A stretch of 43,928 nt of DNA from an uncultured Methanosarcinales archaeon (GCA_964372235.1 CAYJQD010000003.1:1-43928), one strand, 5' to 3'. Shown: positions 6,561 to 43,928, counted from the stretch's first letter. Made by a program: numbers and translations. The notes: generated by a model not told the origin, from the sequence alone.

Positions 6561-6561
6561 T

Positions 6562-6619: not shown

Positions 6620-6809
6620 TATCTTCCATATCAACAGTCTTTATATACTTCAGAACTTTCCTTTTTCTACGATAGATGTTGTATTTCAAAAAGAGGTGAT
6701 AGACCTTTGTCTAAAGATAGTCCTAAAATTTCTTTCAATGCGCAGAAGAAATGCAAGAAGCTAGATGCATTCTTCAGTGAAGTTAAAGAGGAAAAAGAAG
6801 AGAAATGAT

Positions 6810-7457: not shown

Positions 7458-7477
7458 CCCATCCTCTTTTGTAACAA

Positions 7478-8020
7478 TTACTTTCTCACATAGGTTACAA
7501 ATGAATATCCTTGCCTATCAATTCTTTTATCTTTATCTTCTTTCCATAGAGCAGGATCTATCTTTGGAAAATAACGCATCTGCGGCCCTTCTACATGTTG
7601 ATCGACATGAGTAATTTCTAGGGAGGTAGCATATTGCATTGCCGCTTCGTACACTTTTTGGCCACCACCTATGAAAATCTTGGAGTACTTTATTTCATCT
7701 TTCCAAGTGCTTCGTTCTTCTAAAACGTCGAGAGCATCTTCCAGAGCTGAAGAACGTAATACTCCCGGCTCACTGAAGGACTTATCACTGGTTAGAACAA
7801 CGTTATGCCTGCCGGGAAGTGGACGTTTAGGAATCGATTCATAGGTAACTCGGCCCATTATAATTGGATAGCCTGCAGTTAATGATTTAAAATGTTTAAA
7901 ATCTTCTTTAACCAGCAGTTCGTTGTTTTTTCTATCCTCCTGCCAGGGAATCGTTCCATTTACCCCAATAACATTATTTCTTGATACAGCAGCTATCAAA
8001 ATTATCTCTGGTTGTTTCAT
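7478..8020 (-). CDS. folA: dihydrofolate reductase
   Basis: IILIAAVSRNNVIGVNGTIPW, DFKHFKSLT, PIIMGRVTYESIP, LPGRHNVVLT. The ATG at 8020 is preceded by GGAGG (8028..8032), 7 nt upstream. Confidence 0.85.
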   Translation of the reverse strand: MKQPEIILIAAVSRNNVIGVNGTIPWQEDRKNNELLVKEDFKHFKSLTAGYPIIMGRVTYESIPKRPLPGRHNVVLTSDKSFSEPGVLRSSALEDALDVLEERSTWKDEIKYSKIFIGGGQKVYEAAMQYATSLEITHVDQHVEGPQMRYFPKIDPALWKEDKDKRIDRQGYSFVTYVRK

Positions 8021-13000: not shown

Positions 13001-13228
13001 AGCCTTAGGGGTCGCTCCCGCTTCTCCCACCAAGGCATCACTTCGATCAAACCACGCTCTTCCTGCTCGGGCTTCTTTGCTTCCGAAAAGGAATTGCCAG
13101 ATCTTACATCCTAGCTTACATTCTTCAACAGGTTCATCTGCGTAAGGATCTGTTTCCTGGGCAAAGGCGAAGATGGAACTACACAACATGAATAATACAA
13201 AGATCGTGGTTAATTTTGCTGCTTTCAT
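10097..13228 (-). CDS. large secreted protein with Sel1/Hcp-like Cys-bracketed repeats, a coiled-coil stretch and a Cys-rich C-terminal domain
   Basis: Signal peptide MKAAKLTTIFVLFMLCSSIFAFA. Sel1-like repeats at about 12410..12703 (CVAAGNIHYKNGEYDKS.., CLNVGTHYAKGNGVQQDQKTALQFFNKGC). Lys/Glu/Ala-rich heptad-like region at about 10960..11330. The ATG at 13228 overlaps the upstream TGA (ATGA). Confidence 0.7.
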   Translation of the reverse strand: MKAAKLTTIFVLFMLCSSIFAFAQETDPYADEPVEECKLGCKIWQFLFGSKEARAGRAWFDRSDALVGEAGATPKAEDEKLLIDAGAKKQRDGTYLITVGADKTFFRFQNGKWQWASEKEKNANTWSDAGKNPWTVESAHPLAKVNELSSKLGGIPSDSAPTPAASTMTPEQQALNQKYVEAKEKGDLGVLTNLCTDYSKACVAAGNIHYKNGEYDKSLPLQQQACAAGDKTGCLNVGTHYAKGNGVQQDQKTALQFFNKGCALGDARACGNVQSVEDVFAEAGFAGKGPGSENYKAREEAYKKLIGKDDYKGAPEQNGLLLNALKEGTVTVPFKSGVKAGSQAETDRVKGILESSLGASYADLEKSVGKVKSVYERPGAGVYVISGLGGEVIVDQKADEDGVITAKRFESSTSNKIVERYVVVNGQIVATQKEAGGVVKVGESSYTLPKGKILTNADTLGELKEGIQLPGKEGEPSGILKLNDGVFTAINYEEETMQRINSKTKESTNLKGDYYRKGVSGCKTDGGCFVETGGEVTLNIDGKAQSYLVDYEYNKPFGADRTLQQKELFDPGTGRKNGIVLVDGKGETNAIITKSGKKTEQGEVIYQLQDAKTGTTIEAKKVGDDWRTVTSPTSPKLQDAKTKGETVAKNLADTQRKLEEAKTKEENLKSEYATAKLQGNKEEEAKVSQLLATAQAERNTLENKAGKLGEELSKINADITKEEQAAKEAEDKLTNTLNSKENKEALKELETEEVLATIDVAIQSIYSITNNFKSYPAISNLLFGEADFYKDWRSKWDKAFAPLLASNWFPSAICENNALHWQDIEPEGKAVIKTTSGTYQAVASIQMERSPEASPILCHKNPDEESDELFICDSRQVCVDDTFCYADQDRDNEPDSDEPLKGYFYKVTWAVSSPQDEAFTPLVDENGVAVSFNVFLYPGAVPMYNLNGNIASPIQLQNGASDRDAIIKYSTNVYDQACIRWNQAPVSINIAGRDGVAAGYGAIEDVCFNVVTSDIGKVNWERSGQSGASVSVSSGQVTKNSDW

Positions 13229-16200
13229 ATCACATCCTCGCCGACTGAGTCGCAATAGTTTAATCCGCCTTGTTTGAAATCTTCTACCACCGTGGTGACG
13301 AAACCAACAATCTGTTCCAGAGTGCCAAAGATCTCCCAGATGTAATTAGCATAGGTACAACCACCTGAAGCAGTATTGCTCGTAGCACATATGATACCGC
13401 AAGTGACCACCGTTACAGTGTGAAGTATTGCAAATGGATCTGCTAACGCTCTCGATAATCCACCAATAACCTCATCCCAGAACTGAGAAAATGGAATCAA
13501 ATACCATAATTCTCCTACTACATATTTACATACCAGTAGATCTTCTAATTCTTCACACATACTTACAGTTGCTAATCCGGAACGTACTTCATTTTCTAAA
13601 CAGGCAATCTTACGACATTTGATCTGCCTAAACTTATCAAGATTCTTGATAATGCCTGGGATACATAATCCTGCAAAAGAGAGGAACAGATTATCTCGTA
13701 TGTCTCTTGGATGAGAATAGTTATCTTCTCCAGGATTGTAGCCTTTAGCAAGAGGATCGCCGGGCGCTTTTAATCTTTCTACTTTATACAATTCTAAGAT
13801 AAATGCCTGCCATTGGCTGTACCAACCTAAGGAACCGCCACTTTGTGGTCGGCACGTTAACACTTCAAGGATAACATCAAATATTTCTCCGCCAGATTTT
13901 GCGCCGGTGGTTCCACTATGGAATCCGAAACAAGCAGCAATCCTCTGCGCTTCTCCCCCGTAAGGATTAGCTTTTAATGCTTCAGTTCCGGTCTTGGCAG
14001 GGCCTTCAAAAATTTCCACTATCTTCATAATTATATTGTATATCTGTATCAGATAATCCAGCCACTTCAACACCTCTGCCATCACACCTATAACATCCCA
14101 GGCTGCATTGATATCATCCCTTGCTTCCTGGATGACTTGATCCAAATTCTCATCCTGTGCGCCAAGTGTAGAAAATCCAAACGGCACAACAACGGTAACT
14201 TGCTGCACTTCTGCTGCTCTGACTGCATTCTTGCCTACCTGTGAGAATATTTTGAAAGTACATACATATTCAACTTCCTGTTTGACAAATTCAGTTTCTT
14301 CTTTCTGACCGATCTGGAACATACTGCGTCCATCAAACGGTTCAAATTCAATAATGACATTTGGACTAGGAGCATAATCTCCGACAGCAGATACCCCACC
14401 ATACAATATTGCTCTGCTAATGACTGGCGCACTTGCTGCAGTTTCTCCTTCCTCTACTTCTGGAACAGCACAATTCACTAATTCGATATCCAATGCGCGA
14501 ACATCATTTACATCAGCACCTAACGCGATCTTAAATGGCAGCCTAGTATAGGTCAACTGGGTGGTGTCCAAATCGATAAAGGCGCCTGCTCCGCCGAGAG
14601 GAGTAACTTTGCGCACTTCCCAGAAATCGGGATTCTCTTCTGTAGTCAAACCTAATAAATCGATAGTGATAGTCGCTTCTTCATTGCTACTACGGAATCT
14701 CTTGACATTCTTCGGTTCGTTTTCTGGCGCAGGCCAGCTGACTGCATCATTGCCGGCAGTGTCCTGCACGCGAACGTCAACTTCTAAACCTGTTTCAGGA
14801 CCGCTCTTGATCGGATCAGTTTCTAAAGCGCATTCCCATCGTCCTTCTGCGCGAGTACAATCCTCTTCAGTAAAGATAACCCAGCCGTCTTCATCGATAA
14901 AGTCATTCGCAGGATATACATTTTCAGCGTCTAATAACAAATCTTGTACATTCACTAAGACGCGCAAGCCACTCGCCTCAGAAACTCTCAATACCAACTT
15001 AAATCGATCATTGCTCTGGAAATAATTCTTATCACCAATTTCAGAAGTTCCAAACACTTCTAAAGACTCGACCTTTGGACCGGTGTTATCTACGACAAAT
15101 TCAGATTCTGCAGCAAGGCCTTCATTGCCGACATTATCTTGGAAACGGGATAAACCGAAGGTCAACACCCCTTCATTAACTTCTTCATCAACATCCCAAT
15201 AACATTCTAAAACGCCAGCATCCTCTACACATTCGTTTGGTTCTGCCAGATTGCTTAACCCAAATCCAGCTAAATTTGCACGGACGCCATCTTTGCTGAT
15301 CCCTGCTCCCTGATCCTCAGCCTGTAAAATAATTGTGTTCTCACCACTTTTCAGATAACTTTTCCCTTCAAACTGTTTAACGGTGCCAAAGAACTTGATG
15401 CTTGGAGGATTATTATCGACGACGAAGGTTGAGGACAAGCTTTTTTCCGCGACATTTCCTTTTTCATCCGTAACTTTGACTAATACAGTTACTGTTCCAG
15501 CCGGATTAACCTTCACATTACTCCAGGTACAATGCCAAAGATCATCTACATCCGCATCAGCTTCACAGGTTGCTTGATCTCCGTCAAGATCAGCTTGTTG
15601 CGAAAATCCTTGCACGGTCGGCACGCTCTTCTCTACTACATCAACTTGTATATCAGTGGAGGAAGCGAACTGTCCGATAAATTGTCCATACTTCGTAAAG
15701 TTAAGATTATTCCCAATTAATGGCTTGACAAAATCAGCAAAGAATGATACAGAGGGGCTAAAAGAGACATGACCTAAATTATCTTCAGCACGGATCTTTA
15801 ATCTCTTGGTACCTTCGCCGCTCATGCTGGCTTGTAAAATTCCTTCATATCCTCCGTCACCCAAATAACTGAACGTCTCTTTTCCATCAGGAAGATCTAT
15901 GGTCTGCAGAGCTGTCCCTGTATCGCCATCAATAATGTCAATCTTCTTCAAGCCGGCAGAAGGAACTCCGCTCTTTTTGTCATTGACGGTGAAATCAAGC
16001 TTTACTTTACCTTCCTTCCCCTGGCTCACTTTTCCTGGAGAAAAGAAGATCTGCGGAGCGGATCCATCTGCTTTGATCACATCACCGGAAGAAGCGCTTT
16101 CTTGTTTCAAGGTTGCACTCAGGAAGGAATAAATGACTTGAAAGGCATATTCTCCTTCTTGTATTCCATCAGTTAGCGGACTAATATACTTACATAATAC

Positions 16201-16494
16201 TCCAAGCGTACTTGGAGAACAGGATGTAAACGAAGCCTGATTGTCGCCGATTTTGATTTTCACATCTTCCGGCTTGACGCTAGTATTGCTAGTCCCTGCA
16301 CCCGAAATAAGTGCTTCAACGGTCCAGACGTCGCCTTGTGCATCGATATGCTGCTCAATCCCTGCTTCTCCTTCATTCTTAGTTATCTGTACAGAGGCAG
16401 CCAAAGCACTCGCAGAATAGACAGGCATGCTCAGCACTAACATAACCATAAACAATGCTGCCAGGTTCCAGATGCTCTTTGTTTTCGGTTTCAT
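13225..16494 (-). CDS. large secreted, beta-rich (adhesin/Ig-like by composition) protein with Cys-rich hydrophobic C-terminal region
   Basis: Signal peptide MKPKTKSIWNLAALFMVMLVLSMPVYSASALA. The long middle part is rich in Gly, Asp, Val, Thr and Ser. The last ~330 aa hold many Cys and amphipathic or hydrophobic helices. Its start lies 2 nt after the upstream stop. Confidence 0.7.
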   Translation of the reverse strand: MKPKTKSIWNLAALFMVMLVLSMPVYSASALAASVQITKNEGEAGIEQHIDAQGDVWTVEALISGAGTSNTSVKPEDVKIKIGDNQASFTSCSPSTLGVLCKYISPLTDGIQEGEYAFQVIYSFLSATLKQESASSGDVIKADGSAPQIFFSPGKVSQGKEGKVKLDFTVNDKKSGVPSAGLKKIDIIDGDTGTALQTIDLPDGKETFSYLGDGGYEGILQASMSGEGTKRLKIRAEDNLGHVSFSPSVSFFADFVKPLIGNNLNFTKYGQFIGQFASSTDIQVDVVEKSVPTVQGFSQQADLDGDQATCEADADVDDLWHCTWSNVKVNPAGTVTVLVKVTDEKGNVAEKSLSSTFVVDNNPPSIKFFGTVKQFEGKSYLKSGENTIILQAEDQGAGISKDGVRANLAGFGLSNLAEPNECVEDAGVLECYWDVDEEVNEGVLTFGLSRFQDNVGNEGLAAESEFVVDNTGPKVESLEVFGTSEIGDKNYFQSNDRFKLVLRVSEASGLRVLVNVQDLLLDAENVYPANDFIDEDGWVIFTEEDCTRAEGRWECALETDPIKSGPETGLEVDVRVQDTAGNDAVSWPAPENEPKNVKRFRSSNEEATITIDLLGLTTEENPDFWEVRKVTPLGGAGAFIDLDTTQLTYTRLPFKIALGADVNDVRALDIELVNCAVPEVEEGETAASAPVISRAILYGGVSAVGDYAPSPNVIIEFEPFDGRSMFQIGQKEETEFVKQEVEYVCTFKIFSQVGKNAVRAAEVQQVTVVVPFGFSTLGAQDENLDQVIQEARDDINAAWDVIGVMAEVLKWLDYLIQIYNIIMKIVEIFEGPAKTGTEALKANPYGGEAQRIAACFGFHSGTTGAKSGGEIFDVILEVLTCRPQSGGSLGWYSQWQAFILELYKVERLKAPGDPLAKGYNPGEDNYSHPRDIRDNLFLSFAGLCIPGIIKNLDKFRQIKCRKIACLENEVRSGLATVSMCEELEDLLVCKYVVGELWYLIPFSQFWDEVIGGLSRALADPFAILHTVTVVTCGIICATSNTASGGCTYANYIWEIFGTLEQIVGFVTTVVEDFKQGGLNYCDSVGEDVI

Positions 16495-16496
16495 GT

Positions 16497-18896
16497 TTAT
16501 TCAAATGTTGGTTCTAATTCCGGTCGTAATTTCTGTGACAGATTTCCTAACTCAGCCATGACATTCAAATCTTCAATAATACGAACATGCTCTTGTTCAG
16601 GAACGCCTTCTAAGTTGAAAGTCAACACATTGAAAGTTATTCTATCAGTCCCATACAATTGTTCAGGAGTAATAGTCAAATAAGATTTAGGTTTATCCCA
16701 TTGCAATCTTCCTAGCAATAATTCGTCCAAGACTTGCTGTTCATAGGTAAAACAAGTTTCAGGAATAGGTATAGGGAGCCAAAGGCCACCGGTACAACGT
16801 TCTTCTTCGGGAATAATTAATTGCTTTGAGCTAGTCACTAAAGCAGTCACTTCGTACACACCAGGTACTAATTCAAGAGAAGCAGTTCCTTTGCCCGTCA
16901 CTGTTGCAGCGGAAGAAAATTCTTCACTAAAGATGCCCGGAACAGTATCGGCAACACGCTTCAACATCACTACTGCGGTTTCATCTTCGGTCAATGGCTT
17001 AGCTAGATTCAAGAAAGACCAGCTGTGCTGTTCATCCAATGATTCAGGAGAATAAGTATAGATAGGGCTTCCTAAACTTCCAAACAATCCTTGGGTGAAG
17101 CATTCTTTATTTTTGCCATCTTCATCTGCGATACATTTTTCCAAACTTTTCTTGCGCACCGACATGTTCACAAACACTTTTTTATGCATGGGAACGACTA
17201 ATTCCGGCGATCCAGCAACAGCGTAGCCGATCGTTCCCGGGGTTTCCCTAAATCGATAGGTATCAACCGGATAAAAGTTAGTGAGATATTCATCTTTCAC
17301 GAAAGAAGCAACTCCGCCATAGACAGCAGGATAGGTGCTTTCAAACGTTCCTTGATTATTAGTTTCCCCCATGTCGCAATCATCTTGTTCAGGGATGGAA
17401 AATCCAATCTGCACTGCTTCCAATGGTTCAAGAGTAGCGCTATCCACGACCACTGTTTTAACTAATTGTGTATTACGCTTATTAGAATCGCAGACCATGC
17501 TTTCCTGCAAGGCTGCTATCGGTGCAGGCTGAGTATAGCCTTCAGTTGGAACTTGATTGTTCCGCAAGTTAGCTTCCAATGCGAAAGCAAAGGTAAATCC
17601 ACGTCCTTCTAACGCATTTGGATCACGAAGAGTAACCAAGACAGGATAGCTCAAGTCATAGGTCGAATAATAGCGATGGATATCTAACGGAATCTTAGGG
17701 ATAGGCGGCACCATAGGGCCATAGAAGATACTTGGTTCAATATTTCCTCCTTTATCGTTCATGTCGAAATAAGTATCCCAGCCGAAGTAATCAAAATTCA
17801 CTTCCATTCCCGGCGCTGCCTCGAGAGGTAAAATCTGGTTATCATAATTTTTTTGATACAAATCTCTAAAGTTCTGAGTAACTCCTTCCTGCTGTGGATA
17901 TTCAAAGCGATAGAAATTAGTGCTGCCAAGATAGCGGAGCATAGGCACATTAGAACTTAACAAACTTTGCGTTTTCAATTTGACATCAGATTCGGCCCAG
18001 ATCACCGGGACAGGTTGATTAAAAGTCATCTGTTCCATGGGCGGTAAACGATTGTAATCTACGCCAGCATACGCCGTCAATAAATCCAGAGCTTGTAATT
18101 CTAAGAAGCTGTGATTCTTTTCTACTGCGGCAATCTCTGCCGCTGTATCATATATTTGTTTCAAGCGAATAGGCACAGGTACATAAAATTGATTCATTTC
18201 TATTTCGGCATCGCCCTTGCTGGCTTCCACATCCATCTTCAACCAGAAATTGACGCTCTGGTCAGCAACCGTAACTTGTATTTCTTTTAAGCCTTCAGAA
18301 CCTTCTTCCAATGCAGGAGCACTGACTACGAAACCGTCTGCTTCAAAACTATCGTAGCCAGCTAAACATTCTGCAATATTTTCTTCTGCAAATCTTGATA
18401 GCTGCGATTCTATGCTTAATTCAGGATCGTCCTGCTTGTATAAAGCTGGTTTTTTGGAAGAATACGATACAGTTGGATTTTCATTGGGCAGAACGTTATA
18501 ATGCCAGTAGGGAACTTTGATCGGTTCCAGATCAAGGCCATCGGCATTGGTCGGATCGTTGGCTGAATATTTGCCGGCTAATTCAGGGTAAATGTAACCT
18601 CCCTGTTGGCCAAGAACAAGTAAGCCGCGTCTTCCTACTTGGGCTAGACAATTTTCGGTATATATCTGTAAAGGTTGGAACTCTTGTGGAACCGCAGCAA
18701 CAATGGGTTCTCCTTCAGCAGTTAATTCTTCTTTGGTAGCAACTTTAGTGATGTACAAGACCCCTGAAAATATGAACAAGATAACGATGCCGATGATGAT
18801 AAAGATTGTTACTTGACCTTGTTTGGACGGGATGGAGCTGCTAAGATTATAGAAACTACTAAAATGGCTACTAGAACTACCTCTTTTTTGCTTCAT
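16497..18896 (-). CDS. large N-terminally anchored extracytoplasmic protein
   Basis: Ser-rich N-tail, then a single hydrophobic helix (KQGQVTIFIIIGIVILFIFSGVLYI), then about 740 aa with no recognised domain. First gene of the three-gene string. Confidence 0.7.
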   Translation of the reverse strand: MKQKRGSSSSHFSSFYNLSSSIPSKQGQVTIFIIIGIVILFIFSGVLYITKVATKEELTAEGEPIVAAVPQEFQPLQIYTENCLAQVGRRGLLVLGQQGGYIYPELAGKYSANDPTNADGLDLEPIKVPYWHYNVLPNENPTVSYSSKKPALYKQDDPELSIESQLSRFAEENIAECLAGYDSFEADGFVVSAPALEEGSEGLKEIQVTVADQSVNFWLKMDVEASKGDAEIEMNQFYVPVPIRLKQIYDTAAEIAAVEKNHSFLELQALDLLTAYAGVDYNRLPPMEQMTFNQPVPVIWAESDVKLKTQSLLSSNVPMLRYLGSTNFYRFEYPQQEGVTQNFRDLYQKNYDNQILPLEAAPGMEVNFDYFGWDTYFDMNDKGGNIEPSIFYGPMVPPIPKIPLDIHRYYSTYDLSYPVLVTLRDPNALEGRGFTFAFALEANLRNNQVPTEGYTQPAPIAALQESMVCDSNKRNTQLVKTVVVDSATLEPLEAVQIGFSIPEQDDCDMGETNNQGTFESTYPAVYGGVASFVKDEYLTNFYPVDTYRFRETPGTIGYAVAGSPELVVPMHKKVFVNMSVRKKSLEKCIADEDGKNKECFTQGLFGSLGSPIYTYSPESLDEQHSWSFLNLAKPLTEDETAVVMLKRVADTVPGIFSEEFSSAATVTGKGTASLELVPGVYEVTALVTSSKQLIIPEEERCTGGLWLPIPIPETCFTYEQQVLDELLLGRLQWDKPKSYLTITPEQLYGTDRITFNVLTFNLEGVPEQEHVRIIEDLNVMAELGNLSQKLRPELEPTFE

Positions 18897-27950: not shown

Positions 27951-29468
27951 TTATCCTTTTACGTTCCCGATCGGTTTCAAGGCCACCACTGGACGAGTAA
28001 TACCTGCTTTATCCAGAGTATCAACAACAACGTCAATATCTTTGTATGCCGCGCCGGCTTCTTCCGCCAAGCCAGCCATAGTCACAGCATGAACGTAAAT
28101 ACCTTTCTTCTCCATATCCTTCTGCAATTTATCGCCGCGGATCTCTCGTTTGGCTTTAGCTCTGCTCATCGTTCTTCCTGCGCCATGCGCAGTAGAAGCA
28201 AAAGTTTCATCTGCACCATCGGTTCCAAGCAAAAGATACGATCCGGTTTCCATACTGCCACCAAGAATAACCGGCTGCCCAATCTTCGCATATTTTTTTG
28301 GTAGCTCTGAAGCTCGAGAAGGACCAAAAGCGCGAGTAGCTCCCTTTCTGTGCACGAGTAATTCTCGTTCTTTTCCATTCACTTTGTGCTTTTCTAATTT
28401 AGCGATGTTATGAGCAACATCATACACTAAGTTCATCTCCATCTCTTCTGCCGTCTTTCCGAAGACCTGGCTGAATACCTTTCTGATTTGATGAGTGATA
28501 ACTTGCCGATTCGCGAAAGCCATATTAGCGGCGCAAGCCATAGCTTTGTAGTAATCTTGTCCCTCCGGAGAATTAAACGGTGCACAAGCTAATTCCTTGT
28601 CCAGAATCTCAATGCCATACTTAGGCATGACTTCTAAAAATAATTTCAAGTAATCCGAACCAATCTGGTGTCCGAAACCGCGGCTGCCACAGTGTACCAT
28701 GATAACTATCTGCCCGGGCTTGGTGATGCCCATTACCTTTGCAGCATTATGGTCGTAAATATTTTCTTTCTTAACTTCCTGGATCTCAAGATAATGATTT
28801 CCTGAACCTAAGGTACCAAGCTGGTCAAAACCTCGCTTAGTGGCTTTGTCAGATACTTTACTAGGATCAGCCTGAGGTATTTTACCATGGCTTTCGATAT
28901 GATCTATATCTGAAGGCCAGGCGTAGCCTTTCTTTAAACACCATTGGGCACCATCTTTCATGACTTCCTTGAATTCTTCCTTGCTGACTTTGACAAAACC
29001 CTTGCAACCGACTCCGGCAGGGACTGCTTTGTAGAGTTCATCAACTAGCTGTTTGATGCGAGGTTTTACTTCATTGACAGTAAGGTTGGTGGTGATTAAT
29101 CTCATACCACAGTTGATATCGAAGCCGATACCGCCTGGAGAGATGACCCCGCCTTCCTTCGGATCAAACGCAGCAACTCCGCCAATTGGGAATCCGTAGC
29201 CCCACTTGTCTCTTTCTAACCCTTAGTTAGCAAAGATATGACCATCGGGCATGCAATATGCATATTTTTGGATTCCCGGCAGATTTGCCACGTTTGAAAT
29301 CTGGTTGTACACTCCCGCATCCATAGCATCAATAAGTTCTTTTGTGCCAATAATCCTGGCCGGAACACGCATTCCTTTTTTGAAGGAAGCAGGTAATTCC
29401 CAGGTAGTGTCATTTACCTTTTTTAATTCCGGTGGAGGACCAATCGGCTGACCTTCTTGCTCTTCCAT
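27951..29468 (-). CDS. rtcB: RNA-splicing ligase RtcB, single reading frame interrupted by a 33-nt insertion carrying an in-frame TAA
   Basis: ORF 29223..29468 (..AYCMPDGH) and ORF 27951..29105 are in the same frame. The stretch between them translates as WGYGFPIGGVAAFDPKEGGVISPGGIGFDINCG. Removing 29205..29237 restores the family motif PD-x-H-W-GYGFPIGG. Confidence 0.8.
29205..29237 (-). other. 33-nt in-frame hairpin insertion with a TAA stop in its loop
   Basis: The RNA reads AUCUUUGCUAACUAAGGGUUAGAAAGAGACAAG. Stems UCUUU/AAAGA and CUAAC/GUUAG are separated by one bulged G. The loop is UAAGG, and its first three nucleotides are the stop codon (29223..29225). Confidence 0.85.
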
Positions 29469-29501: not shown

Positions 29502-30131
29502 TTAAAGCTTTTCCTTGTTAACAGTGATTTGGGTAGAAGCCATTGGTAAGTACGAAGCAAGTGCTTCTTCCAATTTTTGCTTTTTCTTGGGATGAAGAAA
29601 ACCAACTTCTTGTTGGTAGTTTAAGATATTTTCTTTTCCGCAAATAGTCAACCGCCAAATAGTCCTATTTTTCTTCTTAGCCAGCTGCGAAGGGATACCT
29701 AACTTAAGGAGCTCTTCCTTAACCTGAAGAATTCCGCGTTCATTACAACATTCTAAACCGATTAATCGGCTTTTTCTGGGTTGATTTTCAACCCATCCTT
29801 CACAATCAAAAAAAGCTCGTAACCAGGATTTTACTTGTTCTTTTGATAATTCTGGCATTTTCCATTCGTAAGAATAGTAGGAGAAATCTTTGGTTAAAAT
29901 ATAGTAAATCTCTTTATTTTGAAGTATGCTTCTGCCTTCGATGATACGGGGTTCGAGACCAAATACAGCTTTAAACTTTTGCTGAAAATCCTTCAACAAA
30001 ATATCATTTGTATTTCTAAAACCAATGTAGTAATATTTGTGCTTTTGATGTTCAGGATTCTTAATGACATAACCATCACCACAGAGATAACCATGAATTG
30101 CAGCAAGATTTTCCTCAAATTTCATTTTCAT
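29502..30131 (-). CDS. free-standing LAGLIDADG homing endonuclease (two-motif type)
   Basis: LAAIHGYLCGDGYV and LRAFFDCEGWV are two LAGLIDADG motifs about 95 aa apart. The likely ATG is at 30131 (MKMKFEEN). The gene ends 33 nt upstream of the rtcB ATG. Confidence 0.7.
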   Translation of the reverse strand: MKMKFEENLAAIHGYLCGDGYVIKNPEHQKHKYYYIGFRNTNDILLKDFQQKFKAVFGLEPRIIEGRSILQNKEIYYILTKDFSYYSYEWKMPELSKEQVKSWLRAFFDCEGWVENQPRKSRLIGLECCNERGILQVKEELLKLGIPSQLAKKKNRTIWRLTICGKENILNYQQEVGFLHPKKKQKLEEALASYLPMASTQITVNKEKL

Positions 30132-30325
30132 CCATCGCTTTGTGAAACTACATAAATGATTTTCTTTTCTAAGACAATTATAATTCAGTAGTTGAAGCTG
30201 GAAAGAATGAAAATGAAGAGAAAATCTTAGTGGATTATAGTTTACGATAAACGCGGAGCAACCAATAAGAGTCAAGGATTATAAAGATCATCCAAAGAAT
30301 GGCCCAAAATCCGTAGGTTTTACTT

Positions 30326-35930: not shown

Positions 35931-38900
35931 TTAGCTACTGCTGCTCGAGGTGGGAAGCCTACCTTTGTCGATCCACTGATTGATAGGTTGATCAACCAAT
36001 GATTCGTCTATCAAATCCAGATCTATCTTTTCCAACATTTCCTGTTCCACATATTCAACCACTTGATCAGAAATTTTCCAGCCAGTAGTTCCCTTGGCTT
36101 TCTGAATATTAGTTATTTGGGAGCTAGCTTGCATACCTATAATTTTTCCTTTAGATTTATCGTATTGAAATTCAAACCCGAATGCTCTATTGGGCAGGTC
36201 AGCGATAAGATAATTATCATATTGTCCATCATATACTAAATCACCTTTCTCTCCTCCGATTATAGTTCCAAGAGCCTGCCTATGATGAGTTTTATCACTT
36301 TCAGTGAGGAAGACTACTTGGACCCTTCCATCGTCGTGTATGTAGGCAATCGCCTTCCCACCATAGATATCTTCTCCAAGGAATTCTAACTTATTTTGAA
36401 ACACTTCATCAACATTCTGTGGGCCGACACTATCATAAAGATTACTCACTGTTCCCTCGTATCCTTGAACAGTTGTAACTACTTTGGGCTCTGGAAGATC
36501 GGCAGGAGGCAATTCAAACACTATTTCTTCTGAAGGTAGATTCAGGGGTAAACAAGGCCCAGCTATAGATAGGCCTGCTATAGCTCCTCCAACCGCAGCT
36601 CTACCGACGGAGCAAGATTCAAGTTTAACTTCCGGTAATACTATCTGGCCTTCTTCTATCAACCTAGCCCTGCTTTGATCTAATTGCGCAATAATTTCAG
36701 CATCGTCAACTTCCTTATCAAACCATAACGTTCTTTTCTGCTTCCATTTTCCTTCTTCAAAGTAATAATCCTTACCGGCTATTTCAAACGCATTATCACC
36801 CTTTTGAATTACTGCCGCTTGAGCTTTAGGCACTCCTGCTTTTTCCCTTGCTTTGTTTAGAATTGCTACAGTTACCTCATCAGCTTCTTTATCTCCAAAT
36901 AGTGTGTCGACTAGACCTTCTCGCGGCTGCACCCATTTTCCTGTTTTGGTATCAAATATGTATTTACCAGTCGAAGTTTCAAAGAATCGTTCAGCATGCG
37001 TTCCCGGCATTTCTTTCGCTACTTTCTCAGGATCTATTCCTAACTTATACATCAACTGCAGCCGGCTATCTTCATTTCTGATAATATTCAGCACGTCAGG
37101 GGTAGCTTGATAACCAGCAGCGTGCATTGCTCTCTGCAGTTCAGCTATGTCAGCATTCTCAACTACGTCGGCAGAGCGAGGCAGCTCTTGTTTAAAGCGT
37201 ACTGCTTTCGCTTCAGGAATCTTGGTCGATACGAGTAACGGGTCAATCCCTTGCTCATACATTCTTCTTAGTTGGTGCTCTCCTGGCCTTATGTAAACCA
37301 ACACCTCCGGAGAAATATCGTAGCCAGTAGCATCCAAAGCGATCAATAATTCTTTTTGAGTCGCGCTCTGGACTGCTTCTGCAGCAGGAGTCAGATCACG
37401 TTTAAACGCTAGGGCGTTCTCTGCTCCAGAACGTGGAGCGGTCATGACATTATCAACCCATGCTTGTAACAATTCTTGTTTTTGTGCAGGTGTTCTTCCT
37501 TCCTTGAAACTCCAATCGGCGACATCGACGAACAAGACATCACCAGCTTGGTATTGTTTTCCCCCAAGGTGATGCGGTTCGGTCAGGACCATAGCCTGAA
37601 GATCATGCGGATTCCAGCCGGCATCTATCGCTCTGGCCAGATCCTGCGTAAATAGCTCAATCTTTTCTGGAGTAAAGTATTGAACTACTTCTTCATCGGT
37701 GAGATCAAAGAAGTGTCTCCCTTTTATTTTATCAGAAACTAAATATGGAACTCCGTCGACTTTGTATATCCCGTAATATTGAGGACAAGGCACCAGCTTG
37801 CATGCTTCCCTGGCTTTCTCAAATTCGATAAAAAGCCCATCCACATTTGACTCTAAATTTCCGCGCAATATTCGCTCACCGGGCAAGGCTTTAGCAGTCT
37901 TGAAAGCCAGATCATCTCCTACCCCAGGAAGGTCAGCTTCGTATACCAAGCCGACAGTTCCTTCTCCAAGTTTGTTGGTAAAGGCTACCTCAGCATCTTG
38001 CACCTGCACGGTAGGATGACGTTGTACTATCTTCTCTAAGTTGATCTTCTGTTGAGCATAGCCGCCCTTTACTGTGGCAATCTCCCGTGAGATCTGAGAA
38101 GGCGTTTCTACTTTTCTTTCCAAAAGAAGAGGTTCTGATTCAAAAAAACGTGGTTCTTTAATTCTTACGCCGGAAATATCCTCCGTTTTCCCAACAATCT
38201 CATCAAGAGTAGAATCACCTAATTCTTCTGCTGGCAATGGTTCTGCTGCTCTCGCCGCTGAACAAGAAGCTAATCCGTAAATGGCGCCGCCGGCAACTGC
38301 ACAAGGCTCTATTACATCTGATCTAACCCTTGGCCCTGATTCCCGTGGAATTGGCACATCTCCTAAACGAGAATCAAGATTTAGCCAGGGCTGGTCAGGA
38401 TTGATGCCATACTTCTCAAAAATTTGCCGTTTTATCTTATCAAATTCTGGACCGGTTTTTCCTCCGGTCACAGTATATATTTCAGTTAGCGCTTCAGCAC
38501 GAGCTTGTCCAAAAGAAGGTGCATTTACGTCTTTTGCCTGAATATATTTAATTTCATTTTCAGTAAGCCCTTTGTAGAACACATTTCCAGGATCTTCTGC
38601 CCAGGAGACACCTCTACCCACTGGCTTAGTAAACAGGGGAATTTCTTCATCTAACAACGTAGGGTTTATTCCTGCTAGGATTTTTTCTACTTGATCTTGG
38701 TGAGCAGCTTCAACATACAAGACAGTATTATCCGTTCGCCGGGCAAATGCCGCCTTATTTCTAGATGTCTTTATCTTAAATGGGATCTGCTGCTCGGTCA
38801 ATTCTCTTCCAACTTTTTCCAATATCACCTGAGAGGAATCAAAATTCTTAGAGTTTATGTAAAATCTAATTCTATTATTATGCGGCAGGTCTTCTACACT

Positions 38901-41900
38901 CTGAATGGCTATCCAACCTCCCTGTATTCCTCCTGGAGAAATATCGACTTTATCTGGATCTATTTTATTCTGCAGCCCAATAGAAGCATGAAGCTGGTTT
39001 ACTTTGCCTTCTTCAATAATATTTGGAGATGTTTTGTGATTATAACTGTCGTAGAAATGTTTGAAGATTTCTTCATCAGATTTTCCTTGCAGGTTAGCTA
39101 AATTTTTATTTTCAAAAATATCTTTCACATTTTGCGGCTTAGGAGCAGCCGTGACGACTTCACCTTCTCTTTGTAAAGTATCAAAATTCAGATCTGTTTT
39201 TCTGAAACGTACCGTGTCTCCGTTAGCATACGTGAGGCGAAAAAATTCAGAATCCTCTCCGGCGTATTTGCCTGCATAAGGCCTGCCACTAGTTCCAGCA
39301 ATCCTTATCTGATCTCCTTCTTTGATAATACTGCTTTGATCTAATCTATCGATACGCAAGGTATTTGTCTCTGGTTTACTGCCGAGCAGTCCAAAGAATC
39401 TCTCTTTCTCACCCGTTTGAATAGTTATCAATTGCTCATCAGCTTTCAGATATTTACCACCGTACGAATTTCCACTTTTGGAACGAACGCGGAAAGATTG
39501 TCCTTCTTCGAGATCGGCGATGGCTCTTTGATTCGTCTCAACTGGCGGCGCAGTTATTTTTTCAGGAGCTGCTCCCGGTCTGGCGGCTGGCGCTCCCGGA
39601 CACGGCGCTAGACCATAAATCGCTCCGCCGGCAACGGCGCAAGAGTCAACCACATCAGAAACGCCTCTGCCGGTCCTTTCTCTTTTGGCCTTTTGAAAGG
39701 TAGTAAAGTCTATGTCAAACCCGCCGCCGGTAAGTGCTTCTCTTACTTTTTCATCATAAACCTGCCGGAGTAAGGATGGTTCGCCCGGTATTGCAAATCC
39801 TGCGTCTAGAACCTTTGCTTCCAATTTTCCTTCAGGCGTTTTGGTAAGGATGATGTTGCCCCAATGGAAATCTCCAATTTCTATGTTTTCAGCTACCAAA
39901 TCATCAGCAAGCGTATCAACAGCTTCAACTACATCATCGAATTGGCCTTGCGCTTCTGCTCTCAAGAGGATTGCTTCTCCTTCAACGTCATTGGCTAATC
40001 TGTACTCTTCTAACTGTTGCGGCGTTAATCTTTCACGTATAGTCTGAGCTAAAGTCTGACCTTCAATTTTTTCAGCAATGTAATAAGTATCTTCAGCCTG
40101 ATAAACTCGCGGAGCTGCACCGCGATCTGCGAGGCGATTCAAAAAGTCAGCTTGTTCAGGGAACGTATTAGCAGCACCTTCTAAAGACCTATCAATATTT
40201 CTAACTTTTATAATTGCCGGTTTTTCGACATTAGGTAAATTGACCCTTACCGCTTCTGGAATTTCTAGAACCACACCTTCACCACCGCTACCAAGAAGTA
40301 ATTTTTCCTTATTGACTAATTTTTCCAAATCTGATTCAGGTATTCGAGAGCCAGGATGTGTATCTAATACATCGACAATTTCATTCCAGTCGTCCTGCCC
40401 CTGAACTCGCGGGGGAAGATTTACTTGTTTTTGAGGAGCACTGATTGGTACTTCGGCGGTAGCGATATCTGGGACTCCTGGTTTAGTGATGACTTGAACA
40501 CCTTCTTTTCTAGTCTTTAGATCTTTAGTAGTCTGCTCTACAATTTCTTCAAGATCAATTTTTTCCGGAGCTTCTTCGACCTTAGCCGATGGAGTTTCAG
40601 CGACAGTTCTTGCGCACGGAGCTAATCCATAGATCGCTGCAGCGGCTAAACTACATGGATTAACTGCTTCAGTTTTTGCTCCATTCAATACCTCATCAGT
40701 TTTTCTTCCAGGACTATTGATCAAATCTTCTGCTTTCCTAACTTCTCCCAAGAATTCTTCTTTAGTAACTAACTTTCCATCAATGCGAACTCCTTCAAAA
40801 CGTACTCCGTCGATATCTATTGTCTCAATTGGAACGTCGTCAAGATTGTATCGTAATCTTCCGTCAGGAGCTAACTCCCAGCGCGCTCCTAATGGTTCAA
40901 GCTGAGTACGTAAAGAATCGAGTTCGTCTGGAATGATTTGTGGACCGGCGACTCCCACTGCTTCTAATCTTCTTGCTTTGACGTCATTGGCTGCAACATA
41001 TTCACTATTAGCAAGATCTTCTAAAAGCATCTCTTCTAGTTCTGCTTCTGCTCTTGCCTCAGTAGTGTCTATCCTCCGTAAAATTTCATTTCCTTCTTCC
41101 ACTTCTATCCGCAATTGAGGAGGAGCATCTTCAGGAACTTCAAAACGCAGTCCTGTTCCTTCTGGTTCGACGCGCACAGCAGGATTACTTGCCAACTCAT
41201 CAAGTTTAGCAACTCCCTCTGCGCCAACTGCATCATACACCTCATCTCCCTCCCTTGAAACTTCTGCTTGTTGCAATCTCTCACCTAATGCAGATTTGCT
41301 TCGCTCAAACTTCCTATTAAGATACGCATCATCTACTTTCTGAGCTGCAACTTCCAAATTTTCCTTAGCCGCATCTAACTTGGTTCTGGAAAGAATTGCT
41401 TCCGGAGTATCTCCCACTAGTTGTGCATTTTTGCTCGCATCCGCAAATTCATCTGCCACTCGTCTAAATTCATCCTCTGCTCTCAAGACTTCTTCTCCAG
41501 GACCATCACCAAGTACTTTTCCAAACGTAGAATCCCAAGCTCTTCTTACCACGTCCTTATTCGGTCCAGCGATATTTGATACCCGTAATAAATCATCTAA
41601 CTCGTCAATGTTCTCAGTTGATTGCACTAGTGCTTCCTGAGCATCAGAAATTTTAACTAAGGATTGTCCTTCTGCAACAGTATCGCCGCTGGCGCGTGCT
41701 GCTGCTAACTCCCGTTGCGCTTGGTTAAGATTTTGAGTCTGAGTTGCAATATTATCAATTTCAACATTTCTAGCCTTGGCTATATCACGATCAAATTTAC
41801 CAAGAGGAGTATTTATTACTCTCTTGAATTTCTGATATTTGCTGGCTTCCCAACCCGCTATGATTTCCGCTTGAAGCGCTTCTTTAGCGGCATCAAACGC

Positions 41901-43928
41901 TTTCCTGGCTTCTACCGCCGCTTCTGCCGTATCAGCTGCTCGTTCAGCTGCTCGGGCTGCCACATATGCTTCTCTAGTTCCTTTTGAAGCGTAGCGATAA
42001 GCATCAAGGACGGTGTCTCCTTTTTCTAACGCTTTGGCTAACTTTGCAATTTTTCCTAATTTTACAGCTCCGCTAGCTCCTCCGCTAAGGAATTCAGTAG
42101 CTAGATCTACAGGAAGAAGAACATTATAAAATTCGCTAATAGCAGTATCTCTGAATATCTGTTCGGTTTCACTGCTATAAGTAACACCTACCCTCTCTAA
42201 ACCGCCCGCAATTGTTCTTCCAACCGTTTCTCCAGTATAAACAGCGATAACTTCTCCTAACACATTTTGATTTAAACTGTCTACTGTACGCTGTACACTT
42301 TTAGCTCCTGCACAATCGGGACAGACTGCCAATGCTTCTTTATATTTTGCTGCTGCTTCGCCGGCAAGCTTATCCCTATTAAGGCTCCGTGCATTCTCGG
42401 CATCGCGAACGATAACGTTAAATTCAAGCTCCCGCCGCTCTGCTTCATATTGTTCTTTACGCTGTTGAGTCAAAGCAGTTTTCGCCAGTATATCATCCGA
42501 AGCTTCTAAAAATTTCTTATCTTCTTCAGAAAATACGGACCTGGTCAAATCAAATTCTAACAAAGCCGCAGCAGGCTCGTCTGCTACACCGATTTGAAAA
42601 TCCGATGTAGAGGAAACCACGCTGCCGTCAGCAGCCCTATCTATCCCGGCACGAGCATCAGCAAAGGCCTGGCCAGCAGAAAGACCTCGTTTTTCGTAAT
42701 CTCTCAATTTCAAACGCAAGCTATGCAATTGATCAATTTGCCTTTCCTGTTCATCGAGAGCTCGTTTATCCAGCTCATTTCTGACATCTTCAATTCCAAA
42801 AGCTTCTGCACCTGCTTTAGAACCGCTATCTGCAATAAATGAAAAAGAATGCCCTGCTAACGCTACCGAATCTGCAACAGCATCAAGAAAGTTACCTGAC
42901 GTACCTATATTTTTCCAGGCATTAGCAACAGCTCTTCCTGCTCCTAACTCTTCTTCCTCTTGTAGAAATCTTTTTTTCAGCTTAGCTTGTTCTAACTCTT
43001 TCTCACGTTCTTCTAATACTCTCTTAGCATGACTAGTCTGAGCGATCCTGGCTTTCTTCAACTTCGCCAAATCAGGATCAAGTAAGGCTTCTGGAACATT
43101 TTCTGACCCTTGCAGCTTTTGTGCTAGTTCAGGATTATCTGCTTCAATCTCTTGCAAGATCGCTCCGGCTTCATTACCATAACCGTAATCATACAACAGC
43201 GCTACTTGATCTAATGTTTCATCTCTTTGCTGACGAACTGCTCGATCCACAATATTCTTGGCATGATCATCAGATACTACTTTTTGTCCGGCTAAAACAG
43301 AAACATCAATGGTTTCTAACACCACCACGTTTCCTTTCTCATCTTTACCCAGTTTGACCACTTCTTTTATGCCACCCTCCGCAGCTATGCTGGGCCCAGA
43401 AAGAATGTTTTCAACTTCTTTATATTTTCCAGCTAAGAGAGCAACTTCTGCCGCTACATCATCTTTCCCTTCCATCCGATATTTTTCAATAAGAGCTTGG
43501 TTTTGTGAGTCCAATCCCTTTAAATCTTTATCAAGTTGCTCAAGCTCGCGTTGGGTTTCCACAGTGGCAGCGGCATCAGCGCGGAAATCTTCCCGAAGAG
43601 TATATACTTCAGGATCTAATTTGTTATCAAAAAAACCACGAGGAGCATGCCTATTTATGAGATGGATAACATAATCGGGATCGGAATTAAATCTATCTTC
43701 ATCAATAGCAAGAAAGATAGATTTTTTTCCGCCTCCAACTAACCATTCTTTTTCTAACTTAGACCAAATTTCGTTTCTTAATTGGTTGCGCCGACCCCTT
43801 TGTGCTTCCAGAGTGTGTTTTAAATCAACTTCTCTTTTTTTGCCGTTATCTATTTTTCTCTTAGTGTCTTCAATTTCTCTTTTGTCCGTCGCAACGATAC
43901 CTTTAGATCTGAATAGCAAACGTCTGAA
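35931..43928 (-). CDS. giant multidomain protein (over 2,660 aa). The N-terminus lies beyond the window. It has a coiled-coil arm, two APH/ChoK-like kinase folds and several internal repeats.
   Basis: The frame is open to the window edge; the track start is only a TTG. aa ~1-1088 are helical and rich in Ala, Glu, Lys and Arg. Kinase-like fold 1 has LGSGGEGVV, AIIKV, IGDFHWGNII and VLDAG (about 39780..40300). Kinase-like fold 2 has LGEGTVGLVY, AFKTAK, NPHDLQAMV and FVDVADW (about 37500..37980). Four Cys-bracketed modules mark the boundaries. Confidence 0.85.
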   Translation of the reverse strand, partial: FRRLLFRSKGIVATDKREIEDTKRKIDNGKKREVDLKHTLEAQRGRRNQLRNEIWSKLEKEWLVGGGKKSIFLAIDEDRFNSDPDYVIHLINRHAPRGFFDNKLDPEVYTLREDFRADAAATVETQRELEQLDKDLKGLDSQNQALIEKYRMEGKDDVAAEVALLAGKYKEVENILSGPSIAAEGGIKEVVKLGKDEKGNVVVLETIDVSVLAGQKVVSDDHAKNIVDRAVRQQRDETLDQVALLYDYGYGNEAGAILQEIEADNPELAQKLQGSENVPEALLDPDLAKLKKARIAQTSHAKRVLEEREKELEQAKLKKRFLQEEEELGAGRAVANAWKNIGTSGNFLDAVADSVALAGHSFSFIADSGSKAGAEAFGIEDVRNELDKRALDEQERQIDQLHSLRLKLRDYEKRGLSAGQAFADARAGIDRAADGSVVSSTSDFQIGVADEPAAALLEFDLTRSVFSEEDKKFLEASDDILAKTALTQQRKEQYEAERRELEFNVIVRDAENARSLNRDKLAGEAAAKYKEALAVCPDCAGAKSVQRTVDSLNQNVLGEVIAVYTGETVGRTIAGGLERVGVTYSSETEQIFRDTAISEFYNVLLPVDLATEFLSGGASGAVKLGKIAKLAKALEKGDTVLDAYRYASKGTREAYVAARAAERAADTAEAAVEARKAFDAAKEALQAEIIAGWEASKYQKFKRVINTPLGKFDRDIAKARNVEIDNIATQTQNLNQAQRELAAARASGDTVAEGQSLVKISDAQEALVQSTENIDELDDLLRVSNIAGPNKDVVRRAWDSTFGKVLGDGPGEEVLRAEDEFRRVADEFADASKNAQLVGDTPEAILSRTKLDAAKENLEVAAQKVDDAYLNRKFERSKSALGERLQQAEVSREGDEVYDAVGAEGVAKLDELASNPAVRVEPEGTGLRFEVPEDAPPQLRIEVEEGNEILRRIDTTEARAEAELEEMLLEDLANSEYVAANDVKARRLEAVGVAGPQIIPDELDSLRTQLEPLGARWELAPDGRLRYNLDDVPIETIDIDGVRFEGVRIDGKLVTKEEFLGEVRKAEDLINSPGRKTDEVLNGAKTEAVNPCSLAAAAIYGLAPCARTVAETPSAKVEEAPEKIDLEEIVEQTTKDLKTRKEGVQVITKPGVPDIATAEVPISAPQKQVNLPPRVQGQDDWNEIVDVLDTHPGSRIPESDLEKLVNKEKLLLGSGGEGVVLEIPEAVRVNLPNVEKPAIIKVRNIDRSLEGAANTFPEQADFLNRLADRGAAPRVYQAEDTYYIAEKIEGQTLAQTIRERLTPQQLEEYRLANDVEGEAILLRAEAQGQFDDVVEAVDTLADDLVAENIEIGDFHWGNIILTKTPEGKLEAKVLDAGFAIPGEPSLLRQVYDEKVREALTGGGFDIDFTTFQKAKRERTGRGVSDVVDSCAVAGGAIYGLAPCPGAPAARPGAAPEKITAPPVETNQRAIADLEEGQSFRVRSKSGNSYGGKYLKADEQLITIQTGEKERFFGLLGSKPETNTLRIDRLDQSSIIKEGDQIRIAGTSGRPYAGKYAGEDSEFFRLTYANGDTVRFRKTDLNFDTLQREGEVVTAAPKPQNVKDIFENKNLANLQGKSDEEIFKHFYDSYNHKTSPNIIEEGKVNQLHASIGLQNKIDPDKVDISPGGIQGGWIAIQSVEDLPHNNRIRFYINSKNFDSSQVILEKVGRELTEQQIPFKIKTSRNKAAFARRTDNTVLYVEAAHQDQVEKILAGINPTLLDEEIPLFTKPVGRGVSWAEDPGNVFYKGLTENEIKYIQAKDVNAPSFGQARAEALTEIYTVTGGKTGPEFDKIKRQIFEKYGINPDQPWLNLDSRLGDVPIPRESGPRVRSDVIEPCAVAGGAIYGLASCSAARAAEPLPAEELGDSTLDEIVGKTEDISGVRIKEPRFFESEPLLLERKVETPSQISREIATVKGGYAQQKINLEKIVQRHPTVQVQDAEVAFTNKLGEGTVGLVYEADLPGVGDDLAFKTAKALPGERILRGNLESNVDGLFIEFEKAREACKLVPCPQYYGIYKVDGVPYLVSDKIKGRHFFDLTDEEVVQYFTPEKIELFTQDLARAIDAGWNPHDLQAMVLTEPHHLGGKQYQAGDVLFVDVADWSFKEGRTPAQKQELLQAWVDNVMTAPRSGAENALAFKRDLTPAAEAVQSATQKELLIALDATGYDISPEVLVYIRPGEHQLRRMYEQGIDPLLVSTKIPEAKAVRFKQELPRSADVVENADIAELQRAMHAAGYQATPDVLNIIRNEDSRLQLMYKLGIDPEKVAKEMPGTHAERFFETSTGKYIFDTKTGKWVQPREGLVDTLFGDKEADEVTVAILNKAREKAGVPKAQAAVIQKGDNAFEIAGKDYYFEEGKWKQKRTLWFDKEVDDAEIIAQLDQSRARLIEEGQIVLPEVKLESCSVGRAAVGGAIAGLSIAGPCLPLNLPSEEIVFELPPADLPEPKVVTTVQGYEGTVSNLYDSVGPQNVDEVFQNKLEFLGEDIYGGKAIAYIHDDGRVQVVFLTESDKTHHRQALGTIIGGEKGDLVYDGQYDNYLIADLPNRAFGFEFQYDKSKGKIIGMQASSQITNIQKAKGTTGWKISDQVVEYVEQEMLEKIDLDLIDESLVDQPINQWIDKGRLPTSSSSS
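36552..36614 (-). repeat. Cys-bracketed Gly/Ala-rich module, copy 4 (longer, diverged)
   Basis: EVKLES-CSVGRAAVGGAIAGLSIAGPC-LPLN. Confidence 0.7.
38262..38303 (-). repeat. Cys-bracketed Gly/Ala-rich module, copy 3
   Basis: VRSDVIEP-CAVAGGAIYGLASC-SAAR. Confidence 0.85.
39600..39641 (-). repeat. Cys-bracketed Gly/Ala-rich module, copy 2
   Basis: GVSDVVDS-CAVAGGAIYGLAPC-PGAP. Confidence 0.85.
40614..40655 (-). repeat. Cys-bracketed Gly/Ala-rich module, copy 1 (protein-level repeat)
   Basis: TEAVNP-CSLAAAAIYGLAPC-ARTV. Confidence 0.85.

Follow-up and report, generated by a model that had tools for sequence, protein, structure and literature searches.

A recurring cysteine-bracketed junction element in a family of giant modular archaeal proteins

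The giant ORF and its four modules

The stretch of DNA analysed here, referred to as the window, comprises 43,928 nucleotides (nt) from an uncultured Methanosarcinales archaeon (CAYJQD010000003.1:1-43928, assembly GCA_964372235.1). A giant open reading frame (ORF) occupies its minus strand at 35931-43928, of which 2665 codons can be read before the stop, and its 5' end, with the N-terminus of the protein, lies beyond the window end. Four copies of a short Gly/Ala-rich peptide closed by two cysteines, designated modules M1 to M4, are spaced along this ORF. An earlier note made from the sequence alone had described these modules and their lead-ins (TEAVNP, SDVVDS, SDVIEP and VKLES), and all four were found where it had placed them. 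A scan of all six reading frames of the window gave no further motif of this kind besides M1 to M4. The giant ORF and its modules, with amino acid (aa) positions counted from the first codon read, are as follows.

35931-43928, minus strand: giant ORF carrying all four modules; relatives are 2394-4731 aa long
40614-40679 (module 40614-40655), minus strand: M1 with lead-in, AKTEAVNP-CSLAAAAIYGLAPC, aa 1084-1105, 'AAAA' subtype
39600-39665 (module 39600-39641), minus strand: M2 with lead-in, GVSDVVDS-CAVAGGAIYGLAPC, aa 1422-1443
38262-38327 (module 38262-38303), minus strand: M3 with lead-in, VRSDVIEP-CAVAGGAIYGLASC, aa 1868-1889
36552-36638 (module 36552-36614), minus strand: M4 with lead-in, LPEVKLES-CSVGRAAVGGAIAGLSIAGPC, aa 2431-2459, longer type-B variant

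The M2 and M3 peptides are identical at 13 of 14 residues. Of their codons, five are identical, eight differ synonymously and one non-synonymously, so that 10 of 42 nucleotides are different and the longest identical DNA run shared by the two copies is about 11 nt. Because these differences are mostly synonymous, selection acts on the peptide, and the earlier claim that the peptide rather than the DNA is conserved holds. The giant ORF contains 12 cysteines in 2665 residues, all of them in six close pairs (a CPDC pair, a CKLVPC pair and the four modules), with the modules holding eight of the 12. Random placement of 12 cysteines did not reproduce this close pairing in any of 200,000 trials.

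The modules lie among a conserved arm and a series of domain-sized cassettes. Proteins of the family are denoted below by P numbers and their loci by L numbers.

40680-43928, minus strand: conserved arm, aa 1-1083 of the part read, 50-72% identical to seven relatives
42312-42323, minus strand: CPDC cysteine pair in the arm, aa 536-539, conserved and found in all relatives
40419-40613, minus strand: Pro/Glu/Ala-rich spacer downstream of M1, about 25 to more than 170 aa long in relatives
39666-40418, minus strand: K1, kinase-like cassette of the aminoglycoside phosphotransferase (APH)/atypical type, in which the motifs GxGxEG, IIKV, FPEQ, DFHWxN and LDAGFA are invariant
39129-39599, minus strand: spacer and pair of putative SH3-like repeats, aa 1444-1600, a block that recurs at other places in P0001, P0005, P0010 and P0012
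38388-38891, minus strand: HopA1-family domain, aa 1680-1847 (Pfam PF17914, E 2e-13)
37329-38138, minus strand: K2, second kinase-like domain, containing the conserved CKLVPC pair at 37785-37802
36639-37328, minus strand: repeat region of units of about 40 aa ('YY..G.WK...F..KEVDD.EI', read by eye), the last of which leads into M4
35934-36551, minus strand: C-terminal cassette CT, aa 2460-2665, terminal here and in P0001 but internal, with a module after it, in P0004

The arm is rich in Ala, Glu, Leu and Asp and contains 2% Pro. Directly before M1 it has an extra stretch of about 85 aa that most relatives lack. The 'AAAA' subtype represented by M1 is the module that follows the arm in most family members. 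A repeat of about 40 aa, 'G(K)xYY..G.WK..R...F..KEVDD.EI', seen in the window at 36639-37000 and in P0009, P0010 and P0012, typically precedes type-B modules.

The position of the modules relative to cassette boundaries was evaluated with the ends of BLAST similarity blocks in the cassette region (n=417). Among these ends, 42% fall within 30 aa of a module, compared with 17% expected at random (maximum 22% in 1000 trials). Cassette blocks recur in other orders among the relatives, with their edges at modules. For example, K1 (aa 1171-1429) sits between two modules in P0002, P0005 and P0009, and K2 with its repeats sits between modules in P0001 and P0009. The K2-repeats-module-CT architecture is repeated in P0001 at 67-85% identity. 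The cassette maps and the BLAST block ends agree that the modules separate differing globular units, as had been proposed, and all 42 modules catalogued in the family (see below) are located between cassettes. The spacing from the end of K1 to the following module is short and conserved, whereas the spacer after a module varies over the range given above. The claim that a module stands at every domain boundary was overstated; the modules separate cassettes, most of which are divided from the next by one. In the giant ORF the SH3-like pair and the HopA1-family domain are joined without a module, and the phosphatase, HopA1 and SH3-pair segments of P0012 are likewise joined without one. In the complete proteins, no module follows the final cassette.

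Cassette assignments were supported to different degrees. For K1, the database matches were below threshold (APH, E 0.12; YrbL, E 0.054). The K2 profile gave 143 matches at E≤5 in the Protein Data Bank (PDB); all 60 listed are protein kinases, the best among those listed being ABL1 (E 0.038). The K2 alignments cover the first approximately 50 residues of the kinases, including the glycine loop and the VAIK lysine. A K2 homologue in P0007 matches Pkinase at E 2e-3. The kinase-like assignment of the earlier note is therefore retained with weak to moderate support from motifs, Pkinase and PDB profile matches. PDB sequence searches with K1, K2 plus repeats, CT and the upstream partner gene product described below returned no significant match. 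The segment after the SH3-like pair, previously listed as an unknown domain, is refined here to the HopA1-family domain. The HopA1 family has been reported to include phospho-Ser/Thr lyases (PMC9486802, PMC10604976, PMC9415263). This domain is also found by Pfam in P0008 (two matched stretches) and P0012, and by BLAST similarity in P0010.

Other cassettes were recognized by eye in the relatives. P0012 has a calcineurin-like phosphatase signature (GDLHGN..GDIYDRG..GNHE), P0010 has three HExxH metalloprotease-like cassettes, and P0009 and P0007 have GNAT-like C-terminal cassettes. Pfam gave a weak GNAT match in P0007 and no confirmation of the phosphatase-like and HExxH cassettes.

The HopA1-family domain (38388-38891) and the APH-like K1 (39666-40418) are present in one polypeptide, and the same combination is seen in P0010 and P0012. 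In class V lanthipeptides and thioamitides, Ser/Thr is dehydrated by a pair made up of an APH-like kinase and a HopA1-like lyase (PMC9486802, PMC9415263, PMC10604976). As effectors, the kinase-like and HopA1 cassettes could convert Ser/Thr of target proteins to dehydro-residues. Both are enzyme types that need cytoplasmic ATP or phosphoprotein substrates (PMC9486802), yet the complete members of the protein family have a signal peptide.

The module family and its relatives

Eight relatives of the giant ORF, 1545-4460 aa in length, were retrieved from a set of 5.8 billion proteins, and scans of genomes and metagenomes gave six related loci only. All relatives with a source name are from metagenome-assembled genomes (MAGs) of Nanoarchaeota (DPANN). 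Relatives that are complete or have a full-length N-terminus begin with a Sec-type signal peptide, e.g. MKNKINQLAALFFIYLMFISPFSLA. No transmembrane (TM) anchor beyond the signal peptide was found in the relatives; hydrophobic 19-residue windows in these proteins are restricted to the signal peptide, one arm segment and the modules. Common to all are an N-terminal region of about 850 aa and the arm of about 1000 aa, beyond which the order of cassettes differs.

A total of 42 modules in 16 sequences of this one rare family were catalogued, with two to seven modules per protein. Both cysteines are kept in all 42, with 11 to 19 residues between them, and a search of the family for Cys-less module-like copies found none. 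The earlier note had proposed that its view would fail if orthologous giant proteins lacked the module; the orthologues carry it. Within this small group of giant, modular proteins from Nanoarchaeota-type archaea, the module serves as the standard connector; the complete members have a Sec signal peptide.

The inter-cassette unit is about 22-30 aa long and consists of an acidic lead-in, a cysteine, 11-19 small or aliphatic residues and a second cysteine, after which a variable Pro/Glu/Ala-rich spacer follows. The lead-in often reads [ST]-[DE]-x-V-x-P, with Ser/Thr at position -6 from the first cysteine in 25/42 modules and Asp/Glu at -5 in 24/42. The interior is composed of 31% Ala, 21% Gly, 10% Ile, 8% Leu and 7% Val, and neither Trp, Phe nor a basic furin-type site occurs in any module. 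The 14 residues downstream are enriched in Ala, Glu, Pro and Val. Two types can be distinguished. Type A has 11-13 Ala/Gly-rich residues between the cysteines. Type B, E-[LI]-P-x-C-x-[IV]-G-G...C-[IL]-P, has 13-19 and includes Arg in some copies. The profiles of the two types align Cys-to-Cys (hhalign, E 0.005). Several lineages have their own variants, which occur at several junctions of a protein: a PG type in P0007, AIAGMAPC in P0012 and insertions before the second cysteine in P0010. Some of these variant modules sit within duplicated segments. Because all 228 cysteines of 13 family members have a partner within 21 residues, the family-wide close pairing suggests local disulfides.

A 41-column type-A module profile was searched against 1.84 billion representative proteins at E≤1e-3. 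Ten proteins were retrieved, nine of which belong to the giant family or are fragments thereof; the tenth is a WD40 false positive. Apart from the false positive, the type-A profile found this family only. The earlier statement that no described family has this module is borne out by Pfam (six modules tested, E≤10) and by NCBIfam, including the TIGRFAM C-terminal sorting signals (E≤1), neither of which gave a match. A word-index homology search with the module profile yielded 99 candidates, none of them scoring, and a homology search with a 520-aa segment of P0008 returned no match. Viral contigs searched with the back-translated module pattern gave no match, and a literature search for the protein family or the module found no description.

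Two short sequences end in a module. P0014 (128 aa) resembles a stand-alone small protein. P0015 (243 aa) was considered as another and rejected, being a fragment of a frameshift-broken giant gene on L007. That contig (ENA ERZ1286166 contig_6371, 1-7700) holds a family member split by frameshifts into many short ORFs on the same strand, and represents a pseudogene or, alternatively, an error-rich assembly.

Genomic surroundings of the giant gene

The neighbours of the giant ORF are ordinary cellular genes, including those for methionyl-tRNA synthetase, RtcB, an M50 peptidase, CBS proteins and guanylate kinase, and the window is therefore a piece of cellular genome, which the relatives indicate to be archaeal. 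It was also scanned for tRNA genes and Rfam matches, and none were found. The downstream 239-aa and CBS genes match the neighbours of the P0002 gene. Given this synteny, the same locus holds different cassette strings in different MAGs. Downstream ORFs of the window on the opposite strand encode a tetratricopeptide repeat protein, a protein that received no assignment and a metallophosphoesterase; none is recognizable as an immunity gene.

Directly upstream of the giant gene, each of the six related loci has a gene of about 340 aa that is approximately 70% identical between lineages (L001, 4678-5700; L004 and L006, 4572-5585; matching positions in L002, L003 and L005). Its product has an N-terminal TM helix and a C-terminal PKD/immunoglobulin (Ig)-like domain. 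In L001 and L004 its stop overlaps the start of the giant gene; the window ends short of this position. A 436-aa gene of L001 (1070-2380) resembles the N-terminal part of this conserved upstream partner. In the window, three large minus-strand ORFs of 1052, 1089 and 799 aa at 10097-18896 have a signal peptide or an N-terminal hydrophobic segment and weak Sel1 and Ig-like matches, and the N-terminal approximately 190 aa of the 799-aa ORF are about 25% identical to the N-terminus of the 436-aa L001 gene product.

The RtcB frame of the window is broken on the minus strand at approximately 29100-29400, upstream of the ORF 27951-29105 and within the conserved MPDxHxGYG motif. The sequence reads '...YAYCMPDGH', then 'IFAN*GLERDK', then 'WGYGFPIGGVAAF' in the same frame, so that about 10 codons, one of them an in-frame stop, are inserted. 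This could be a mini-intron, a recoding event or an assembly error. Directly upstream of RtcB, on the same strand, is a free-standing LAGLIDADG-type ORF (29502-30275; Pfam E 5e-22).

Possible roles of the module and comparison with known systems

The Cys-bracketed module probably marks the places where cassettes are joined, recognized or released. A more specific proposal, which goes beyond the anatomy described above and to which we assign a probability of roughly one in three, is that the module forms a junction clasped by a disulfide, which a single common partner would read in order to process, release or handle the cassettes. After export, the module cysteines would form a local disulfide, giving a compact clasped loop. 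The clasped loops would then serve as recognition points for this partner, which could be a protease or else a component for docking or translocation, and by which the string would be nicked or handled one cassette at a time. The disulfide would tether the cut pieces until a reducing host cytoplasm is reached. This logic would combine that of AB-toxin nicking loops with that of MARTX inter-effector sites, repeated along a single chain. A common reader is suggested because a near-identical peptide occurs at non-homologous junctions, under purifying selection in M2 and M3, and because lineage variants are common to several junctions of one protein. The kinase-like and HopA1-type cassettes, which depend on ATP or phosphoprotein substrates, would also have to reach a cytoplasm in order to act, which speaks for the proposal.

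An AlphaFold2 model of the module, built from an 18-sequence alignment, has a mean predicted local distance difference test score (pLDDT) of 66, with about 79 in the core. It shows a short helix from just before the first cysteine to the conserved Ile and a non-helical Tyr-Gly-Leu-Ala-Pro return to the second cysteine. A helix-plus-return loop closed by a disulfide would fit the predicted shape. Foldseek found no analogue of the 42-residue module model in the PDB. A model of M1, K1 and M2 from a 5-sequence alignment had a mean pLDDT of 41 and was unusable.

Several points weigh against a clasped junction with a common reader. Pfam detected no protease domain in cis in the giant ORF, and a protease signature is also absent from the upstream partner of about 340 aa. 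The lineage variants shared among junctions could have another cause, recent duplication. Known AB-toxin nicking loops are hydrophilic and poorly conserved. The confidence of the module model is only moderate, and a hydrophobic, highly conserved and partly helical loop of the predicted kind fits a structural or binding element equally well.

The module may alternatively be a purely structural connector, a disulfide-stapled rigid knob or hinge that ends a cassette and insulates its folding, uncut and without membrane contact, with small residues serving to close the loop. The short, conserved spacing upstream and the variable spacer downstream agree with this, as do the compact helix-turn-return of the model, the weak interfacial hydrophobicity and the lack of a protease in the ORF or its upstream partner. 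A connector of this kind leaves the near-identical sequence at unrelated junctions and the lineage-wide variants unaccounted for, and some boundaries have no module, hence it is not required for folding insulation as such. We regard this explanation as unlikely.

Another unlikely alternative is that the modules are membrane-active loops which dip into the host membrane or the cell's own and help to anchor or translocate the cassettes. Viral fusion proteins contain Gly/Ala-rich loops bracketed by cysteines. The modules are almost the sole hydrophobic 19-residue windows of these proteins, and cassettes that appear to need the cytoplasm imply some membrane-crossing step. The fusion or membrane-insertion reading raised in the earlier note gains nothing from the calculations, however. 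Wimley-White interfacial partitioning is -1.9 to +1.6 kcal/mol per module, with no Trp or Phe. Small-xxx-small periodicity is present in 21/42 modules, the level set by composition (22.3 expected after shuffling). Type A is too short to span a bilayer, and Pfam gave no match to a Gly-zipper or fusion family.

Related candidates were rejected. A glycine zipper was dropped on the periodicity count and Pfam result just given. A TM helix needs about 18-20 hydrophobic residues, for which the 12 residues between the cysteines are too few, as had been noted before; type A offers 11-13, against 13-19 for type B. A multi-pass topology that alternates between in and out, in which the modules would be TM segments, fails on the same shortness and would place the kinase cassettes inconsistently between the giant ORF and P0009.

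Thioether or crosslink formation is very unlikely. Here the APH-like kinase and the HopA1-type lyase would act in cis to dehydrate the Ser/Thr of the lead-in, to which a module cysteine would add. The giant ORF does hold a HopA1 domain and kinase-like cassettes, as in the class V lanthipeptide pair, and the Ser/Thr at -6 followed by Asp/Glu in many lead-ins (counts above) would supply a donor. That donor is absent in 17/42 modules though both cysteines are invariant, and the second cysteine has no conserved partner. P0001, P0002, P0005, P0007 and P0009 have modules and no detectable HopA1 domain, and the signal peptide argues for export, hence for no ATP for self-modification. It is still less probable that the module is an internal lipobox-like signal, in which cleavage before the second cysteine and lipidation would turn each cassette into a lipoprotein on a Pro/Glu/Ala tether. 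Type A mostly ends in L-A-x-C, and the sequence past the second cysteine resembles a lipoprotein tether. The strict pattern [LVI][ASTVI][GAS]C is found in 7/42 modules; most often the ending is LAPC or MAPC, with Pro at -1. The modules lie inside the protein behind an acidic lead-in, where a basic one would be expected, and this reading leaves the invariant first cysteine unexplained. This candidate was rejected on the 7/42 count. It is extremely improbable that the module is non-functional, whether as low complexity arisen by chance, a chimeric assembly, or a repeat or recombination site at the DNA level: cassette shuffling does take place at modules, but the copies differ mainly synonymously with the short shared run reported above, independent MAGs and metagenomes show the module again within the same arrangement of blocks, and the six-frame motif scan and the cysteine-placement trials exclude chance.

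On a broader view, the giant family appears to represent secreted, polymorphic strings of effector-type enzymes, joined by an element that is specific to the family and strictly conserved. A doubtful extension is that it represents an archaeal multi-effector toxin, in which a DPANN episymbiont would display kinase, phospho-lyase and other cassettes on the arm, the loops would engage or breach the host membrane and reduction would release the cassettes. If true, this would open a concrete molecular way into the question of how DPANN cells manipulate their hosts and connect with them. DPANN attachment, exchange and host control are largely unexplained, and most giant proteins of these archaea lack annotation. 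With kinase-like and HopA1-type cassettes occurring together, Ser/Thr dehydration might be used on host proteins. Should the junctions serve for processing, release or membrane contact, they would provide a short experimental target that can be synthesized and mutated, and the module signature could be used to locate such effector arrays in metagenomes.

The closest comparisons are with multi-effector and polymorphic toxins. In multifunctional autoprocessing repeats-in-toxin (MARTX) proteins, effector arrays are cut at inter-effector sites by a cysteine protease domain (CPD). The giant family resembles MARTX toxins in having one giant secreted polypeptide, a variable string of effector-type enzymes, a short recurring element between units and a content that varies by strain. 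Unlike them, it has no Peptidase_C80/CPD and no RTX/glycine-rich repeats, as judged by Pfam for the giant ORF and six relatives, and it comes from an archaeal organism and is apparently exported via Sec. The MARTX linker is unstructured and contains Leu, whereas the giant-family junction is a conserved Cys-bracketed hydrophobic loop.

Polymorphic toxins such as CdiA (VENN motif) and Rhs (PxxxxDPxGL) share with the family a conserved N-terminal part, variable C-terminal modules, a syntenic locus and a short demarcating motif. They differ in that the giant family has several demarcated cassettes in series, an unrelated motif sequence and no recognized immunity-like gene downstream.

Disulfide-bracketed nicking loops are known from diphtheria toxin, botulinum and tetanus neurotoxins, Pseudomonas exotoxin A and Shiga toxin. 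As in these AB toxins, a cysteine pair brackets a short loop between functional parts, and a cut chain would remain tethered until reduction. Beyond the differences in hydrophobicity and conservation noted above, AB-toxin loops are protease-exposed and occur once per toxin, whereas there are 2-7 modules per protein and their disulfide is predicted.

Internal fusion loops (Ebola GP2, ASLV Env) are similar in their Gly/Ala-rich aliphatic stretch with Ile, Tyr and Leu closed by two cysteines. The modules differ in lacking Trp/Phe, in their weak calculated interfacial partitioning, in the absence of a recognizable fusion-protein architecture and in being repeated between enzyme cassettes. The class V lanthipeptide, thioamitide and lanthidin pair (APH-like LanK and HopA1-like LanY) likewise combines HopA1 and APH-like domains beside Cys-containing peptides, often with upstream Ser/Thr. 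In the giant family, by contrast, these domains are cassettes of a signal-peptide-bearing protein rather than members of a biosynthetic gene cluster, several members have modules without HopA1, and the donor residue is unconserved.

By analogy, the architecture would work like that of a polymorphic or multi-effector toxin; as neither a C80 protease nor RTX repeats were found, the family is not a MARTX member. What is new is a Cys-bracketed junction element in a modular, putatively secreted archaeal effector array, undescribed before.

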